Assembly (NCBI GenBank): GCA_965226795.1
Contig: CBDDDZ010000002.1
Location: 384,001-448,000, forward strand
Reading direction: 5' to 3'
Source: Candidatus Latescibacterota bacterium
Lineage (GTDB): Bacteria > Latescibacterota > UBA2968 > GCA-2709665
Length of the DNA: 64,000 nucleotides
In this document: in pieces, positions 46,239-60,768 of the stretch
Numbering within the stretch: position 1 is the stretch's first letter
Layout: the number at the start of each line of letters is the position of its first letter
Notes under the pieces: generated by a model
The model's input: the letters and a program-made list of their open reading frames with translations, nothing else
What the model was told of the DNA's origin: nothing
Databases searched by the model: none
Made by a program: the position numbers and the translations under genes

Positions 46239-46486
46239 GCATACAAGAAAAACAAAGGACTCCGGAGAACCGGGCATCGACCATCGGCGTACCCCGGCCA
46301 GCCGGGAACCCGCAGACTGCCCGGCCTGCCGAAGAGATCATTCGAGGCATATGGCCGATATCTTCCGCGAAGCAGAGACCGCGCCCGTCCCGGTTTCTGA
46401 TCTACGGAACGTAGGGCGGTGTACTCGGCAATTTGGAAATCGTCTCAGGCGCCAGTCCCTATATGGGAATCGCGGGGCTTCTTCCA

Positions 46487-46515
46487 TTGACACACGGCCG
46501 GGTGTACAGTATATT
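46487..46515 (+). promoter_or_regulatory. Sigma70 promoter
   Basis: TTGACA-17 nt-TATATT. Confidence 0.7.
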
Positions 46516-46576
46516 TCCACTTCTGGATCTGCAGCGAATTTCGTATTACAACCTCCTATTATACAAGGAGTTCTAC

Positions 46577-47779
46577 ATGGGCGGCAAGTTTCGTTACGTG
46601 CTGACCGACGTAGATCGCGCCCTCTGGGTCGAGTCCGGATATGTAGATGAGGAAACCCTGTCCATAGGGACAGGATATTCGTGGAGCGTGAAAAAGAAAA
46701 CCCTTCAGGGTGGCCTCCAGGCGGGCATCGACCTTATTGAGGTGGACAACGGCGCATTCTCTTTTTTCATAGTGCCGACACGAGGCATGGGCATCTGGAA
46801 AGGCATCTACCGGGGTATCCCGATCGGATGGGAATCCCCGGCCCGCGACCTGGTTCATCCGGCCCACGTCGACGCCAACGACCGGGGAGGCCTCGGTTGG
46901 CTGAAGGGCTTCAACGAATGGATCGTTCGCTGCGGCCTGGAAAGCAACGGCGCGCCGACGAACGACGTGGTAATAGACAACAACGGAAACGAGGCCACGG
47001 TTTTCCTCCCGCTTCACGGAAAAATCGCAAACATTCCTGCGCGCCACGTCGAGGTGTGCATCGACCTGGCACCCCCACATCGCATCACTGTGATGGGGGT
47101 TGTCGACGAAACCATGATGCTTGGTCCCGCGCTGCGGTTGACCACCTGTATTTCCACGTTACCAGGCGCCAACAGCCTCACTGTTTCGGATAGGATTACC
47201 AACCTCAATAACAACCCCGCCGAAATGCAGATGCTATACCATTGTAACTATGGGCCTCCGCTGTTGGAAGAGGGGAGCGCCCTCGTGGCACCCATCAGAT
47301 CCGTATCCCCGAGAGACGCCAGGGCGCAGAAGGGCGTGGACGCCTATAACAGTTTCGGGGCGCCGGAGCCCGGTTTTGTTGAACAGGTCTATTTTTACGA
47401 GCTGGCAGGAAAGAGGGGAAGCGGGCAGACGGCGGTCCTGCTCAAGAACGCCAAGGGAGACCTTGGATCCAGCCTGCACTGTTCGCTAAACCAGTTGCCC
47501 TGTTTTACGCTCTGGAAGAACACGGCGGCAACCGGTGTCGGATACGTCACCGGTCTGGAACCCGCTACCAACTACCCCAACCCCAAGCCGTTCGAGCGTA
47601 AACATGGCCGCGTCGTCAGGCTCGAAGCCGGTGAGACCCACAGAATGGACCTTACGGTTGCCGTCCACGACAGCAGAAAAAAGGTCCGGAACGTGGAACG
47701 GGCTATCAAGCAGATTCAAAAGAACGTAAAATCCAGCGTTTCCCGGACGCCCCTCAAGAGGTTTTCCGCTGCCGGTTAG
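46577..47779 (+). CDS. Aldose 1-epimerase-like protein (DUF4432 family)
   Basis: [47 protein letters not shown]. Confidence 0.85.
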
Positions 47780-47877: not shown

Positions 47878-50800
47878 ATGCCATTCGTGAGTTCCACACC
47901 AACTTTCCAGGAACTCATTCTCCGCCTCCAGCGATTCTGGGCGGATAACGGGTGTATCATCTGGCAGCCGCTGAGCGAAAAGGTGGGCGCAGGTACGTTG
48001 AACCCGAGCACCGCACTTCGCGTGCTCGGACCCGAGCCCTGGAAGGTAGCCTACGTTGAACCCAGCTTCCGTCCGGACGACGGCCGATTCGGAGAGAATC
48101 CGAACCGGATGCAGATGCATACGCAGTACCAGGTTGTTCTCAAACCCGAGCCAGGCAACCCCCAGGAACTCTACCTGGACAGCCTGGAAGCGTTGGGTCT
48201 GAATCGCCGGCAACACGACATCCGTTTCGTGGAAGACAACTGGGAATCGCCCGCGCTGGGCGCGTGGGGCCTGGGTTGGGAGGTCTGGCTGGACGGCCTG
48301 GAAATCACCCAGTTCACGTACTTCCAGCAGGCTGGAGGCCTGTCGCTCGATCCCGTGCCCGTGGAAATCACCTACGGCATGGAACGAATTGCCATGTATG
48401 TTCAGGACGTGCGCGAAGTCTGGCAACTCCGCTGGAATGAGCACGTCTCCTACGGGGACATTCTCAGGCAGCAGGAAGTGGAGTATTGCAACTACGAGTT
48501 CTTTTACGCAAACGTCAAGCGCCTGCAGACCATGTTCAATCTCTTCCTCGAGGAAGCCAGAGCCGCAATAGACCGCGATCTCGTCATTCCCGCACATGAC
48601 TACGTGTTACGGTGCTCTCACACGTTCAACCTTCTGGACACCCGGGGGGCCATCGGCGTTACCGAACGTGCGCGGTACTTCGCCCAAATCCGCGATCTGG
48701 CAAGACAGGTCGCCGAAGGCTTTGCCAGACAGCGCGAAGCATCCGGTCACCCCCTTATCACGAAAACCGAGGACGCGGCTGCCCCGCAACCGCGACGGGA
48801 CTTTGAATCTCTGGAGCGGGCCGACCTACTTCTGGAAATCGGATCCGAGGAACTTCCGCCCCACGACGTGCGGTCCGGCATCGAACAACTCGAAAGGCGC
48901 CTGCCCGAGCTTCTTCGGGAACAGAGGCTTGGATACGACGGCGTCGAAATTACGGGCACACCCAGACGGCTGGTCGCCAGCGTCAGGAACCTTGAGGGCC
49001 GGCAGCCGGACCAGGAACGCGAAGTGCGCGGACCGGCTGTCAAGGCCGCCTACGACGGCGAGGGAAAACCCACGCGCGCCCTTGAAGGATTCTGTCGCGG
49101 TCAGGGCATTTCTCCAGGTTCCGTGGAACACAGGAAAGACGACAAAGGCGTTGCATACGTCTACGCCCGGCGCCACGAGCCCGGACTTGAAACGCAGGAA
49201 ATCCTGACGGAACTCCTACCCAAACTGATTGCGGGCCTGAACTTCCCGAAAACGATGCGCTGGGACTCCGACGGATTCGCCTATCCCCGACCTATCCGAT
49301 GGATTGTCGCCCTTTTTGGAAACCAGATTATCCCGTTCCACTTCGCCCGGATCCGGAGTGGACGTACCAGCCACGGATCGAGGCCCGAAGGCGCCCCGCG
49401 CGTTCGGCTGGAATCTGCCGATAGGTATCATCTTCAAATGGAAGCACGCGGCCTGATCGTGAACCGCGGGCGGCGAAGAGAGGCTATCTGGAAACAGGTT
49501 CTCGAACAGGCGCGTCTGGTGGGTGGTAGCGTACAGGAAGATCCGGATCTACTCGACGAGGTTACCGACCTGGTCGAAGCGCCCTGCGCGTTGCGCGGCG
49601 GTTTCGATGAATCCCATCTTGAACTACCGGAGGAGGTCCTGGTCACGGTACTCAAGAAATACCAGCGCTACTTCCCTATAGTTCACCCGCAAACAGGCCG
49701 GCTTATGCCCTATTTCGTGGCCGTATCCAACGGCCGGTCGGCCGATTCCGGCCCCGTCATTCGCGGGAACGAGAATGTCGTTCGCGCCAGATATGCAGAT
49801 GCCGCCTTTTTCTACCGGGAAGATGGCCGAAAGCCCCTGGAAGACTACCTGCCGCGGTTGGATACGCTCACCTACCAGGAAGAGCTGGGCTCCGTGAGGG
49901 ACAAGAGCGAGCGAATCGAGCGACTGCTCACGGTCGTCGCCAACGATCTGGGTCTGACGGCATGCGGTACGAACACGGCGAAAAGAGCGGCCCGTCTTTG
50001 CAAAGCCGACCTGGCCACCGGTATGGTCGTCGAAATGACGGCCCTTCAGGGCGTGATGGGCCGCTACTACGCCTTGTTGTCCAACGAGACCGACGCAGTG
50101 GCCACGGCCATCCAGGAACATTATCTCCCCCGGTTTCCGCGCGATATGCTGCCGGCAAGCGAATCCGGTTTTGCGGTTTCCGTAGCCGACCGGCTGGACA
50201 GCCTGGCCGGCCTGTTCTGCGCTGGAATCAAGCCCCGGTCTACCGCCGATCCCTATGGGCTGCGAAGGGACGCGCTGGGCCTGCTGGCACTGCTTATCGG
50301 GAAACGGTGTCACTTCTCCCTTAAGAAGGGCCTCGAGGCCGCGGCAACGGGGTTGCCGATCCGAATCGATACCGATCGATTGAACGACGCTTACAAGTTC
50401 ATCCTGCGCCGCCTGGGCGTACAACTGAAAGAGGAAGGTTTTCGCCACGACGTGGTCGAGGCCACCCTTGCCGGCGGATGCGACGACCCTTTCGGGCTCC
50501 GCACCATTGTGGAGGGCCTCGATCGGATGGTACGTTCGGAAAACTGGACGGAAACGCTTCATGCATACGCACGGTGCAAGCGGATTGTTCGGATCCTCGA
50601 TGAAATCCATCCATTGAATCCGGACGCGGATCCAATCCCTTCCTCGCGCAGCTTACATCAGAATTGGGGGGACGCCCGCCGCAGCATGGACCGTTCGGAA
50701 GACAAGATCGACACCCTGGAAAAAGTGTTGGCCGACCTGCGCGAACCTATAAACAGCTTCTTCGAGGAAGTGCTGGTGATGGACGAAGATCCCGTGCTTC

Positions 50801-50883
50801 GCCGGGCCCGCCTGGCCCTGGTTCAGCGTATCGTCTCTCTCACGGACGGCATTGCGGACCTGAGCAGGCTGGAGGGGTTCTGA
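47878..50883 (+). CDS. glyQS: Glycine--tRNA ligase, fused alpha and beta subunits
   Basis: Alpha motifs [23 protein letters not shown], then beta motifs [26 protein letters not shown], all in one 1001-aa ORF. Confidence 0.97.
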
Positions 50884-51030: not shown

Positions 51031-51612
51031 ATGCGCATCATCACGGGCAAACTCAAAGGCCGGACCATTCCGTTTGACGTCAGGAAACACGGCAACGCCC
51101 GCGTAACGCCGGGAAGGATCAAAGAGGCCGCATTCACGATTCTGGGCACCAGACTTGAACATCTTCATTTTCTCGACCTCTTTTCCTGTTCGGGCCAGAT
51201 CGGACTCGAGGCGTACAGCCGCGGCGCCAGGGTGCTTCTGAACGAACCGAATCGTGGCAGGCACGGCTTTATTTTAATGCTGTTGAAGGACTGGGGTTTG
51301 GAAAAACAGATACGCCTGCTGAATCAGCCCGCCGAGAGACTCCTGCCTCTGCTTGAGTCGGAACAACGGCTTTTTGACGTTATATACGCGGATCCGCCGT
51401 ACCTGCAACGACTGGACGACGTTCCGTTCGCCCTCGCCATGCTCATCCGTCTGAGCGGATCCGCCCTCGTTGCTCCATCGGGACATATCCTCATTCAACA
51501 CTTCGCAGGCCTGGAGTTGCCCGCCACCGTCCGGCATCTTTCATTGCGCATGCGTAAGACCTACGGCGTCACTTCGTTATCCATCTACCGAAAGGTGGGC
51601 CGAGGCCAGTAA
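51031..51612 (+). CDS. rsmD: 16S rRNA m2G966 methyltransferase (RsmD family)
   Basis: MRIITGKLKGR, LDLFSCSGQIGLEA.SRGA, DPPY, YG.T.L. Confidence 0.88.
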   Translation: MRIITGKLKGRTIPFDVRKHGNARVTPGRIKEAAFTILGTRLEHLHFLDLFSCSGQIGLEAYSRGARVLLNEPNRGRHGFILMLLKDWGLEKQIRLLNQPAERLLPLLESEQRLFDVIYADPPYLQRLDDVPFALAMLIRLSGSALVAPSGHILIQHFAGLELPATVRHLSLRMRKTYGVTSLSIYRKVGRGQ

Positions 51613-51633: not shown

Positions 51634-51662
51634 TTGCTTTTGTACCCTGTTGCGTGTATTCT
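51634..51662 (+). promoter_or_regulatory. Sigma70 promoter of the small UGA-containing gene
   Basis: TTGCTT-17 nt-TATTCT. Confidence 0.5.
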
Positions 51663-51700
51663 TTTAACATCCAACCCCAATTCGGAAAGGAGCCGACCAC

Positions 51701-51979
51701 ATGAATACCATGCACGAGTCCATCGAATTCCGTCCCCGCGGGCGAACGCTTGCCATAGGCGGTATCCCCTGGCTGCCGCGGATTACGGACAAAGCCCGGG
51801 CAATGCTGCGGAACAACATCGGCGACTATATCTACCCCTGACCCGCCGACCAGAAGTTCCTGGAGGAACTCGGCATGCCGGCGGAAAAATTCACGCAAAT
51901 CGTTTCCGAATGTAAACTGGATGAGGAAGTCATCGAACGCGTCCGCCCTTATTACGAAAAGTCACAAAAGGTAAAATAG
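51701..51979 (+). CDS. DUF5069-like small protein with in-frame TGA (candidate selenocysteine, codon 47)
   Basis: RBS AAGGAG; MNTMHESIEFRPRGRTLAIGGIPWLPRITDKARAMLRNNIGDYIYP-TGA-PADQKFLEELGMPAEKFTQIVSECKLDEEVIERVRPYYEKSQKVK*; hairpin 51845-51874 directly after the TGA. Confidence 0.75.
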
Positions 51980-51987
51980 GAATATAA

Positions 51988-52014
51988 AAGCCGCCATGCG
52001 CTGCGTGGCGGCTT
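51988..52014. terminator. Hairpin / probable terminator
   Basis: AAGCCGCCATGC-GCT-GCGTGGCGGCTT, 8 nt after TAG 51979. Confidence 0.55.
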
Positions 52015-52213: not shown

Positions 52214-53158
52214 CTAGCACCTCCCGCCCTCCGGCAGGGCCTGCCGTGCCAGCGCACGAACTTCGCCGGACCCCATACGAAGCAACCCGTCGATTCCGAT
52301 CACGTCGGCCCCTAAGAGCTGCGGACATTCCTGGGCAGCCAAATCGTAAGCTTCCAGGACATCGTAATTTACACCTCTGTATCGGTAGAGATGGCCCAGG
52401 CTCTCCAGCTGTCCGCTTCGTCTGAGCGAATTCGTTACGCCCATCTTGAAATAATACAACTGCCGATCTCTCTTGTCTCCCCACCTCAACGTATCCGGCT
52501 CAGGGATATACGCCATCAACCTGTCCAGTTCCGCCTGGAAGGCCTCGATCTGGCCATCGACCATCTCCAGCAGCCCCCGAAGGACCTCCCTGCGAGCGGC
52601 TTCTTTTTCATCTTGAAGCATATCCTGTAGCACCAGCGCAGCCTTGCCGTAAAACACGTAACGTTCACGCTTCCCCTCTCCGAACAGATCCATTTCAATG
52701 GCTTCGGCTTTGCGCGCCAGCTCCTCCAGGTCAAGGTGGTCATCGCCCACACCGGCGTAGTCGTCATCCGCACGCGCCACCTGAATTCCCACCAGCAACG
52801 CCCGCTCGACAATCTGCATCATGTTTTCCGCCGGATCAAAAGCCCTGAGGTTCCGGGACTGTTCTTCATGGGCGCCCATTCCGCCGGCGCCGTGTGTAAA
52901 CCCCCGACTGACCAGTACCTGTTCCGCCTCTATCCCCAGGCGGACCAACAATTCGCGCAGCACGCCGCCCAATATCGGATGGCTTGCGGCCGGCAGGTAT
53001 TCCTCACGGCCTTCGGTCACCAAATCCGCCACTTCTGCCGCCAGTGCTTCGTCGCCCTCAGGATGCACCTCGCTTCTCAAACCCCTTCCACGTGTCAGGC
53101 TGAAAACAACCACGAGAATCAACAGGACAATCAGAACGACATAGACCATTTGCGGCAT
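52214..53158 (-). CDS. Hypothetical protein with N-terminal membrane anchor
   Basis: 314-aa ORF, hydrophobic N-terminus, RBS GAGGGAG. Confidence 0.75.
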   Translation of the reverse strand: MPQMVYVVLIVLLILVVVFSLTRGRGLRSEVHPEGDEALAAEVADLVTEGREEYLPAASHPILGGVLRELLVRLGIEAEQVLVSRGFTHGAGGMGAHEEQSRNLRAFDPAENMMQIVERALLVGIQVARADDDYAGVGDDHLDLEELARKAEAIEMDLFGEGKRERYVFYGKAALVLQDMLQDEKEAARREVLRGLLEMVDGQIEAFQAELDRLMAYIPEPDTLRWGDKRDRQLYYFKMGVTNSLRRSGQLESLGHLYRYRGVNYDVLEAYDLAAQECPQLLGADVIGIDGLLRMGSGEVRALARQALPEGGRC

Positions 53159-58044: not shown

Positions 58045-59235
58045 TCAGGGTCCGATATCCTCGACTCTTCCGATCTTGTTTCCGGATGGATCGGTAAACC
58101 AGATCCCGCCGTGCCGATCAACCGTCAGCCGTCCGACGCCTGAGACCGAAGACGGCAACTCAAGAATCCGAACGCTGGACGACTCGGGATCGAATCGCGC
58201 GATATATTTCGACTCATCACTCGCATACCAGATGCGCCCGTTCAGGTCCACGGCCAGGGAGAGTGGATCGGGCCCATCTTCAGGCAAGATATAGCTCACG
58301 AAATTCCCGGTCGCCAGGAGGTCCCACATGTGCAGCTGATAGGAATTCGTGGAAAACCAGATCTGTCCCCCGGCATCCAATACGAACTGTCTTATGGTCA
58401 AATCCTGGACGGGTACCGCAATCTCCACGATCTCTTTCGTTTCCGGATTCATCCGGCCGAATTTCCCGGCGGTGCGTTCCACAAATACCAGCACGCCGTC
58501 ACTATCGATCAGAATCTCGTCCAGACCTGCAGAGGAGGTGAACACAGGATACTCATCGAACGTACCGCGATCGGGATCGAAACGACCAATCTGGTTACCC
58601 GATTCCTGCGGGAACCAGAGATACCCCTTGCGGTCGAAAACGAGACCGCTCGGCCGGCTTCCCGGCGTGGGTACGGAATACATCCGGATTTCTTCGGAAA
58701 TCGGATCGAGCCGGCCGATCGCGTTTGCAACGATATCCGTGAACCAGACAATCCCGCGGCCGTCAACGGCAAGCCGGGCCGGCCGGCCGCCGGGGGTCGG
58801 CAACGGATATTCAGCGAATGTTTCAGTTGACGGATCGAAAAGGCCGATCTGGTTTGCGCCCATCTGCGTGAACCAGACGCGGCCCAGGACGTCCACCACG
58901 ATATCCTGAGGCTGGCTTCCCAGCGTTGGCAACGCATAGACATCCACGGAACCTACAGCGGGTTCCCCATCTATATGAGAATGCATCACCGTATGCTGGG
59001 CTTTGTCGTAAAGGCGCGCGAAGATCAGGAAATCCTGCAGATCGACGGAGCCGTCGCCGTTGAGGTCAAACCGCGTGTCCCCGGTTCCGAATGCCTGCGC
59101 CAGGAGGACAAAATCCCCGAAGTCGATCACGTCGTTATCGTCGAAATCGATGTCGGTAGTGGTCTGCGACAATGCGCTCGATATCAGGATGCCGACCGAA
59201 AACATCCATACCAGGATTTTTGGACGGATACTCAT
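58045..59235 (-). CDS. Secreted Vgb (virginiamycin B lyase)-like beta-propeller with N-terminal dockerin/EF-hand-like domain
   Basis: DFDDNDVIDFGDF..DLNGDGSVDLQDFLIF; about 7 repeats of GxVWFT..NxIGRxDP. Confidence 0.85.
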   Translation of the reverse strand: MSIRPKILVWMFSVGILISSALSQTTTDIDFDDNDVIDFGDFVLLAQAFGTGDTRFDLNGDGSVDLQDFLIFARLYDKAQHTVMHSHIDGEPAVGSVDVYALPTLGSQPQDIVVDVLGRVWFTQMGANQIGLFDPSTETFAEYPLPTPGGRPARLAVDGRGIVWFTDIVANAIGRLDPISEEIRMYSVPTPGSRPSGLVFDRKGYLWFPQESGNQIGRFDPDRGTFDEYPVFTSSAGLDEILIDSDGVLVFVERTAGKFGRMNPETKEIVEIAVPVQDLTIRQFVLDAGGQIWFSTNSYQLHMWDLLATGNFVSYILPEDGPDPLSLAVDLNGRIWYASDESKYIARFDPESSSVRILELPSSVSGVGRLTVDRHGGIWFTDPSGNKIGRVEDIGP

Positions 59236-59286: not shown

Positions 59287-60768
59287 TCAACCGGGTCGGT
59301 TTCCGGCTCGGGCCAGTTCAAAGATTCCCCTGGCGGCTTCCAGGCGCACGCCCGGTTCCGCGTTATTGAGGTATGACCGAAGCGTCTCCAACTGTTTCAA
59401 ATCGCGCGACTGTGCCAATCCTCTCAGAGCCGCTGCCTGAAGGATCGCTTCTTCGCTCTGTTCAAGGATTTCCTTCAACGCCCTGTGCGCCTCCCGGAGC
59501 GTCATCTGTCCAAGCGCTTCAACAATGGTTTCTCTGGTTTCCAGCGACACGTCCTGTTGAAATGCCCACATTAGAACTACGACCGACTCCCCATCGTTGA
59601 TATTACCCAGAGCCTGCACTATCGCCCGCCGAACGGAATATTCCTTGCTGTTGGAGAACGCATTTTTCAGGGCCGGGATCCGCCTTGCATCACCGATGAT
59701 TCCCAGGATCTCAGCCGCCCGCCGTCGAAACGGACTGTGCACACTCTGCAAATCGTCTTCCAGTTCCTCTGAAATCCCGGCCCCGTGGCCGAGCGTTGCC
59801 AGGGACCACGCCGCGCTGAGCCGGAACGGTTGACTCTCGGGGCTGTAAAATGCGGACCGCAGGAGGTCCACGGCCGTTGAATCCTGAATCCACCCCAATC
59901 CCTCCGCGGCCAGCTCCCTGTCGAGCGCGTTTCCCTCCTCCAGCAGCCGCTCCTTGAGATAGGCGCCAATCGAACTTGCGGACAGTCCCCCCAGCGCTTC
60001 GAAACAGCGGATACGCAGGGACTGTTGCCAGGTGCTCTGTTTCGCCACCACCTCCAGGTGGGTCCTTGCTTCCGCCGTCCCGAACGTCTCCAGAGCCTCC
60101 ACCATGACCAGTGCCGTTGAGAGCTGTTTCGTCGAAATCAATGTATCCGCAATTTCGGGCAGGCTTTGCACGTCTGACAGTCCTGCAAGCGCCAACACGG
60201 CGGCGGACCGCACAACCGGATCCTGATCGTCCCGGAACGCCTGCCGCAGCGCCGGGGTGGTATCCCGGCTGCCCAGTTGACCGAGCGCGGCGGCGGCATT
60301 GAAACGGACCATGCTAAACTCGCCATTCCGGAGCGTCTCGGACAGCCACGGAATCATTGTACCGGGATTCAAGCGTTCAAGCGCCGCCGCTACCTCCACT
60401 TTCACGAAAGCGCTCCCGGTTCTTTCGAACAGACCCTGGAGAGCGCCAACGGCCTCCAGAACATCATGCTTACCCATTGCCTCGACCGCTCGCAGGACCA
60501 CGATCTCATCGGGATGGTTCAACAGGCCGGTAACTGCCGCTCCCATGTCCGCGCCGTCCAATTCCCCCAGCGCCGTTACCGCTTCCGCAACGAGGGCGCC
60601 GTCCAGTTCACCGTTGTGAACAAGACCGCGCAATGCGTTTAATGCGTCGTTTTCGGCGAGTTCCACGTCCTGTCGGCTTACGCCGCAACTCCACGCCGCA
60701 ACGCAGAACAGAATCATCCACACACACCGCGAACCCGGCCTCGGCCGCCCCCGTATTGGCTCACACAT
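59287..60768 (-). CDS. HEAT-repeat (PBS lyase-like) lipoprotein
   Basis: AWSC possible lipobox; repeated VRxxAAxALG. Confidence 0.85.
   Translation of the reverse strand: MCEPIRGRPRPGSRCVWMILFCVAAWSCGVSRQDVELAENDALNALRGLVHNGELDGALVAEAVTALGELDGADMGAAVTGLLNHPDEIVVLRAVEAMGKHDVLEAVGALQGLFERTGSAFVKVEVAAALERLNPGTMIPWLSETLRNGEFSMVRFNAAAALGQLGSRDTTPALRQAFRDDQDPVVRSAAVLALAGLSDVQSLPEIADTLISTKQLSTALVMVEALETFGTAEARTHLEVVAKQSTWQQSLRIRCFEALGGLSASSIGAYLKERLLEEGNALDRELAAEGLGWIQDSTAVDLLRSAFYSPESQPFRLSAAWSLATLGHGAGISEELEDDLQSVHSPFRRRAAEILGIIGDARRIPALKNAFSNSKEYSVRRAIVQALGNINDGESVVVLMWAFQQDVSLETRETIVEALGQMTLREAHRALKEILEQSEEAILQAAALRGLAQSRDLKQLETLRSYLNNAEPGVRLEAARGIFELARAGNRPG

Follow-up and report, generated by a model that had tools for sequence, protein, structure and literature searches.

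Catalogued bacterial selenoproteins carry an in-frame UGA that is read by SelB with the aid of an intragenic SECIS hairpin. Table 1 of a 2026 catalogue lists 119 selenoprotein families (PMC13188914), and the SECIS model of the same source describes a loop of 3-9 nt with a G in position 1 or 2, a stem of 4-16 bp, a spacer of 16-37 nt and an MFE of -7.5 or lower. DUF5069 (PF16798) has no row among the 119 families of that table, in agreement with the initial annotation of the locus described here, which was not aware of the family having been described as a selenoprotein. The structure of one DUF5069 protein, PDB 3OMD, an uncharacterised protein of Leptospirillum rubarum, is solved but unexplained.

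The window analysed here, i.e. the whole stretch of 64,000 nucleotides from a Candidatus Latescibacterota bacterium, contains a short DUF5069 gene that, judged from sequence comparisons, is almost certainly a selenoprotein gene with its UGA read as selenocysteine. The read-through frame of 92 aa behind the ribosome-binding site AAGGAG, as originally proposed, was confirmed in the sequence: the ATG at 51701 is followed by 46 codons, the TGA (codon 47), 45 open codons and a TAG at 51977-51979. The locus comprises the following features.

51031-51612, +, rsmD-like methyltransferase gene (PF03602, E 3.9e-29; TIGR00095 below cut-off)
51634-51662, +, putative promoter TTGCTT-N17-TATTCT (7/12 consensus bases)
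51687-51692, +, ribosome-binding site AAGGAG, 8 nt 5' of the ATG
51701-51979, +, short DUF5069 gene, 92 aa with a predicted Sec at residue 47 in the motif Y-I-Y-P-U-P-A-D
51839-51841, +, in-frame UGA, presumed to be read as selenocysteine, aligned to the family Cys and kept in orthologues
51843-51884, +, lower stem CCGCCG/CGGCGG, in the fold of the window gene only and variable in orthologues
51855-51870, +, candidate bacterial SECIS upper hairpin AGUUCC-UGGA-GGAACU with a 19-nt spacer from the UGA
51988-52013, strand not assigned, GC-rich hairpin, probable terminator, between the DUF5069 gene and a convergent ORF

The upstream AAAGGAG was present by eye in 21 of 22 loci compared and an AAGGAG-like sequence in the remainder. 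The flanking transcription signals fared less evenly. The promoter recurs as TTG-N20-TAT in 13 of 15 genus genomes (by eye), but its match to the consensus is partial, and the terminator-like hairpin, stable (z -3.99) and shared by 14 of the 15 genus genomes, lacks a clean U-tract; neither was called by a promoter and terminator scanner run at the locus. The hairpin may also serve the convergent gene, a 314-aa ORF (52214-53158, -) whose N-terminus is hydrophobic, which matches nothing in Pfam and which is kept beside the DUF5069 gene across the genus. Contigs from RNA libraries span the DUF5069 gene, which indicates coverage alone and not transcription. The rsmD-like gene lies 5' of the DUF5069 gene in 38 locus rows of the Latescibacterota families f1 and f2. 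As functional partners, rsmD and glyQS in f1 and f2, like UPF0182 and pheA in Poribacteria, were rejected as lineage synteny. In the window itself, the glycyl-tRNA synthetase alpha and beta subunits are fused in one 1001-aa ORF (47878-50883, +). Other window genes are ordinary: a DUF4432 protein (46433-47779, +), a HEAT-repeat protein (59287-60768, -) and a Vgb-lyase-like propeller with a dockerin-like domain (58045-59235, -).

The TGA at 51839-51841 is not a sequencing error, because contigs from all four of the public runs compared span the site and show no other letter (one run, X3, is possibly the source sample). When coding potential was scored on both flanks, this codon ranked third of 860 genome-wide candidates. 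Nor does the host use a variant code in which UGA means Trp or Gly, since TGA ends 537 of the 1077 host ORFs of at least 500 codons. The selABCD complement on which the selenoprotein proposal depends was found: the host genome (95.9% complete) has selA, selB and tRNA-Sec clustered on its contig C5, the tRNA-Sec has the anticodon tca, selD contains an in-frame TGA of its own, and selA, selB, selD and tRNA-Sec all score over curated cut-offs. According to the proposed mechanism, SelB and tRNA-Sec would read through the UGA under the guidance of the intragenic UGGA hairpin to yield the 92-aa selenoprotein.

The hairpin at 51855-51870, with a 4-nt loop (51861-51864), a stem of 6 pairs, G at loop position 2 and a spacer of 19 nt, satisfies all constraints of the SECIS model (PMC13188914), as had been claimed for it. 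The minimum-energy fold of 51839-51890 reaches -18.7 kcal/mol (z -2.4; 2 of 200 shuffles equally good). Fold energy alone is modest evidence, because two other fold windows gave weaker values (z -1.26 and -0.28); the strong part is the conservation of the hairpin. At spacer 19, 160 of the 165 distinct UGA genes show a UGGA loop with 5 or more stem pairs, versus 0 of 55 Cys genes. In four further UGA genes the hairpin is intact but moved by a one-codon insertion, and the shifted copies have an A-U pair. At the pair +15/+28, 120 genes have G-C and 41 have C-G, counts that represent clade-level events and are not independent, and the changes at this pair appear to be compensatory. The initial annotation had included a lower stem GCCG/CGGC, which, in contrast to the upper hairpin, is not conserved among orthologues. 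Codon use within the hairpin differs from that elsewhere in the same genes: Leu+7 is CTG in 160/161 UGA genes versus 182/652 elsewhere, Glu+8 is GAG in 160/160 versus 361/746, and the hairpin codons TTC (159/161 versus 168/302) and GAA (154/159 versus 385/746) behave alike. Such freezing of synonymous codons in the hairpin only points to selection on the hairpin. A like stem with GG at the same spacing accompanies 94 of the 146,588 TGA triplets in the host genome. Counting against the assignment, the hairpins of the host FdhA-like, Prx-like and SelD genes have the loop GGUC and a spacer of 18, unlike the UGGA and spacer of 19 seen here. These GGUC hairpins belong to host UGA genes at C5:1515570 (+), C5:1052168 (-) and C4:335819 (+), the first two of which are by their motifs FdhA-like and Prx-like, and the third of which is SelD. 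Further candidate selenoprotein genes lie at C5:656664 (-) and C5:1421522 (+), by motif an AhpD-like CxxU and a UxxC protein.

Membership in DUF5069, at first proposed from motifs, was borne out by a PF16798 match with E 8.3e-15 and 55.6 bits versus a gathering cut-off of 27. The match places residues 12-82 of the read-through protein on positions 4-74 of the 133-position model and spans the UGA, so that a short subfamily and not the full domain is represented. Full-length homologues have Cys at the UGA column and similarity on both sides of it, and 3OMD aligns with E 6.5e-11, its Cys facing the UGA. Of the 86 single-domain relatives 77 have Cys at this column, as do 45 of 45 short Cys forms; across 179 aligned domains, however, there are 134 Cys and 26 Ser, a variability of the column that counts against the explanation favoured here. 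K31 and D50 are invariant in the 86 single-domain relatives and R27 and D30 nearly so; together with R13 and R33 they are kept in 75-86 of the 86. The AlphaFold model (pLDDT 86.5) consists of four helices (25-36, 48-57, 61-70 and 74-91) and a short hairpin, residue 47 lying immediately ahead of helix 2, and has the fold of 3OMD (Foldseek TM 0.78, rmsd 2.1; VIA Z 11.7, rmsd 2.5, 85 residues aligned). Beyond 3OMD, fold searches gave nothing clear (next best Z 4.3, E 2.2 or worse) and structure searches no enzyme of known function with a shared fold; the protein atlas returned DUF5069 clusters only. As modelled, the fold does not appear to be thioredoxin-like.

DUF5069 domains also occur in other arrangements. 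A paralogue in the host genome (contig C3, 216487-217731, -, locus L027) has three tandem domains, of which only the middle one keeps Cys-Pro, the others having Ser-Gly; in similar tandem-repeat proteins from two genomes of Poribacteria, every repeat has Ser. Histidine-kinase proteins with a C-terminal, Cys-containing DUF5069 form five clusters (P0270, P0272, P0280, P0267 and P0271), and in P0268 DUF5069 is joined to a peroxiredoxin-like domain; these joins may represent true fusions or genes that adjoin in frame. No evidence was drawn from the fusions to histidine kinases, peroxiredoxin, hydrolases and others, most being single sequences and several keeping their own start. In the Chloroflexota loci L270 and L293 (also L265 and L280), short Cys DUF5069 genes adjoin beta-ketoacyl synthase or MaoC genes, and L270 and L293 carry in addition a long DUF5069 copy without Cys. 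No shared neighbour of the long Cys forms was found among about 10 loci.

As anticipated, relatives in two phyla share the UGA and the hairpin. In the Latescibacterota, 119 of 168 genomes have the short gene, 104 with TGA and 15 with Cys, counted at a best E of 4.6e-16 or lower, a cut placed at a gap in the ranking; six weaker matches that were fetched proved to be long forms. In Poribacteria the gene is present in 117 of 121 genomes, with TGA in 113. UGA carriers have selA in 102 of 104 Latescibacterota and 110 of 113 Poribacteria genomes; the two Latescibacterota carriers in which no selA was found are 80-81% complete. A pattern scan of GTDB yielded at least 113 matches. Among 80 listed with flanks, 73 are true members, all from these two phyla or unlabelled MAGs, one odd title apart, and 7 are chance matches, none with the hairpin; 30 of the other 33 listed are also members. 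The listed matches outside the two phyla belong to the chance class, including L155 (E 7e-6), which lacks the upstream half. A record titled Planctomycetota was likewise rejected as evidence of a third phylum, its protein being identical to one of a family f4 Latescibacterota. In one genus, the Cys genes of genomes G084 and G091 are placed among UGA genes, and selA is retained by 12 of the 15 Latescibacterota Cys carriers; Sec is therefore dispensable there. A tree of 118 rows and 84 columns, with the codon masked, requires at least five Sec/Cys changes and fits both one gain with losses and several gains. A single origin with reversions is favoured because the hairpin is identical in all UGA clades.

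A gene for a kinase of the APH fold lies directly 5' of the DUF5069 gene in 39 of 46 f4 Latescibacterota and 31 of 35 Chloroflexota loci. It ends at or near the DUF5069 start, and the kinases of different phyla share about 27% identity (E down to 1.6e-9). Four further loci were inspected, three of which have the kinase directly 5' (two Limnochordia MAGs and one titled Brocadiaceae); it is not 5' of the DUF5069 gene in the Bacillota locus L361. The linkage spans three named phyla, Latescibacterota, Chloroflexota and Bacillota. In another set of five genomes, a kinase homologue was found in four and not in the Bacillota draft genome G289; L361 and G289 are exceptions that count against the module. 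One Limnochordia protein, P0231, is an in-frame kinase-DUF5069 fusion (hhalign 99.2%, E 8e-20), which represents a single lineage (378 of 379 members identical), keeps a start of its own in the DUF5069 part and may result from a recent stop loss. The kinase has the motifs D-x-N-x-x-N and F-I-[ED]-F, P0231 matches PF01636 with E 2.1e-7, and the atlas neighbours of the kinase are APH clusters; most kinase members fall under every Pfam and NCBIfam cut-off. Among 132 genomes of families f1 to f4, 115 have both genes, 10 neither, 4 the DUF5069 gene only and 3 the kinase only; the Fisher p of 8e-10, computed for this gene pair alone, overstates the co-occurrence, as the genomes are kin and not independent. 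Four of the 10 genomes with neither gene consist of 1-2 contigs and are 93-97% complete. Both genes are missing from 36 other genomes of the Latescibacterota phylum. Poribacteria have the kinase in 38 of 41 genomes, and the three without it also lack the DUF5069 gene. Counting against the module, in the window genome the DUF5069 gene stands alone behind rsmD, and the kinase homologue lies on another contig (C5:109923-110981). A complex prediction for the kinase and a short Cys protein of one f4 genome scored 0.02 (mark 0.32), which speaks neither for nor against an interaction. The gene linkage makes it likely that the DUF5069 selenoprotein works in one module with the APH-fold kinase.

The kinase genes have neighbours of their own. 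In the host (locus L336, 5723-10203, on C5, -) a UbiA prenyltransferase, a DUF362 protein, the kinase and an AIR-synthase-like protein are grouped. In three Chloroflexota genomes (L354, L355 and L356) a lumazine synthase gene (checked against PF00885 in L354) immediately precedes that of the kinase, and in two of the three ribBA-like genes lie upstream.

A lone Cys at the N-terminus of a helix near conserved Arg and Lys is a typical low-pKa nucleophile. Sec47 would probably serve as the one centre of redox or nucleophilic chemistry and would presumably lie near the invariant Arg, Lys and Asp residues. Its Sec or Cys state might be reset by a flavoprotein reductase, and the small protein would then act as a switch or carrier that controls or serves the kinase. 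In at least 11 of 46 f4 loci an FNR-type reductase gene starts at the DUF5069 stop, in the operon order kinase, DUF5069, FNR, glycosyltransferase, a Grx-TrxR fusion is encoded upstream in six Poribacteria loci, two of which are the same record, and two loci have a rubrerythrin gene ahead of the kinase. Counting against a fixed reductase, these neighbours vary by lineage. The explanation as a whole, in which a Sec protein provides a redox centre within a kinase module, is given a probability of about 0.6. What exactly the module does is a more speculative matter. A Sec/Cys switch that gates the APH-fold kinase, or a selenoenzyme that acts on the kinase product, in a two-gene module with a non-thioredoxin fold, is put forward tentatively; if it were true, the module would occur almost throughout the Poribacteria and four families of Latescibacterota, and Chloroflexota and Bacillota would have versions of it with Cys. 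The redox switch or carrier that serves or controls the kinase is the single most likely reading, itself a doubtful one, and is ranked slightly above an enzyme acting on the kinase product, which is followed by a metal or haem ligand.

The enzyme reading, which we regard as unlikely, assumes that Arg and Lys bind the phospho-group or oxyanion of the product phosphorylated by the kinase, with Sec47 as nucleophile and electrons supplied by the FNR-type neighbour. The conserved R13, R27, K31, R33, D30 and D50, the single Cys/Sec before a helix and the f4 operon order would suit such an enzyme, but 92 aa is small, the FNR gene is unlinked outside f4 (tblastn of the window genome found no FNR homologue), no enzyme of known function has the same fold, and in tandem-repeat copies Ser or Gly mostly replaces Cys yet the charged residues are retained. 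Cys-Pro is a haem motif. In a less probable alternative, Sec/Cys-Pro would bind metal or haem in order to store, sense or chaperone it and not for redox turnover. All 55 short Cys genes encode Pro after the Cys, 16 of the 35 Chloroflexota loci have a gene for a Nif3-like metal protein downstream, a rubrerythrin gene precedes the kinase in two loci, and tandem forms with two or three domains exist; against this, Gly, Ala, Ser or Arg replaces the Pro in 39 of 165 UGA genes, the aligned relatives have no second conserved Cys or His, and the title of 3OMD names no ligand. That the UGA is a true stop, leaving a pseudogene or a 46-aa peptide, or is decoded as Trp or Cys by some route other than Sec, is highly improbable. 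The ten database proteins that end at ...YP and the two that read Trp at the site reflect calling conventions and not data, i.e. the gene callers' mishandling of a Sec codon. The downstream half, on the other hand, has retained its length and sequence in both phyla, codon-level hairpin constraint occurs in UGA genes only, TGA is the commonest stop of the host, relatives have Cys at the site, and 212 of 217 UGA carriers also have selA.

A full-text literature search for DUF5069 found no paper. Searches for PF16798, 3OMD and 'DUF 5069' gave, among the matches listed, only unrelated uses of '3OMD', and those for Poribacteria with selenocysteine and Latescibacter with selenoprotein no relevant title among the matches listed. 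The available supplements of PMC12013277 contained no DUF5069 match, and the available text of PMC13745706 no mention of the DUF. In NCBIfam 20.0 the window protein had no match at E 0.1 and five relatives none at E 0.01. Within the sources searched here, DUF5069 is an uncatalogued selenoprotein family. The prokaryotic selenoproteome gains a family and a fold from it, the DUF5069 cysteine, present also in 3OMD, is marked as the likely reactive residue, and a gene model is put right that public catalogues cut short or misread in both phyla. The function can be tested directly by way of the kinase partner, which is conserved, and of the Sec and Cys versions that occur naturally as pairs among close relatives.

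The decoding mechanism is known; the family and fold are new to selenoproteins. With catalogued bacterial selenoproteins the DUF5069 gene shares the in-frame UGA on a Cys column, the SECIS constraints, a selABCD host and Cys homologues, but its motif is Y-x-[YF]-P-U-[PGA]-x-D, with no CxxU or UxxC. Thioredoxin-fold thiol oxidoreductases differ from DUF5069, which has neither a CxxC-type motif nor a second conserved Cys. Compared with PF16798 and 3OMD, among whose members none has a known function, the window protein lacks the C-terminal helical extension of about 55 aa, and Sec stands in place of Cys. The partner kinase shares its motifs with phosphotransferases of the APH/choline-kinase fold, and nothing points to a resistance role. 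Close counterparts are the short Cys-type DUF5069 genes of Chloroflexota, Bacillota and some Latescibacterota and Poribacteria, which have the same length, motif and upstream kinase gene; they differ in having a TGC or TGT codon and a decayed hairpin in place of the UGA and the intact hairpin found here.
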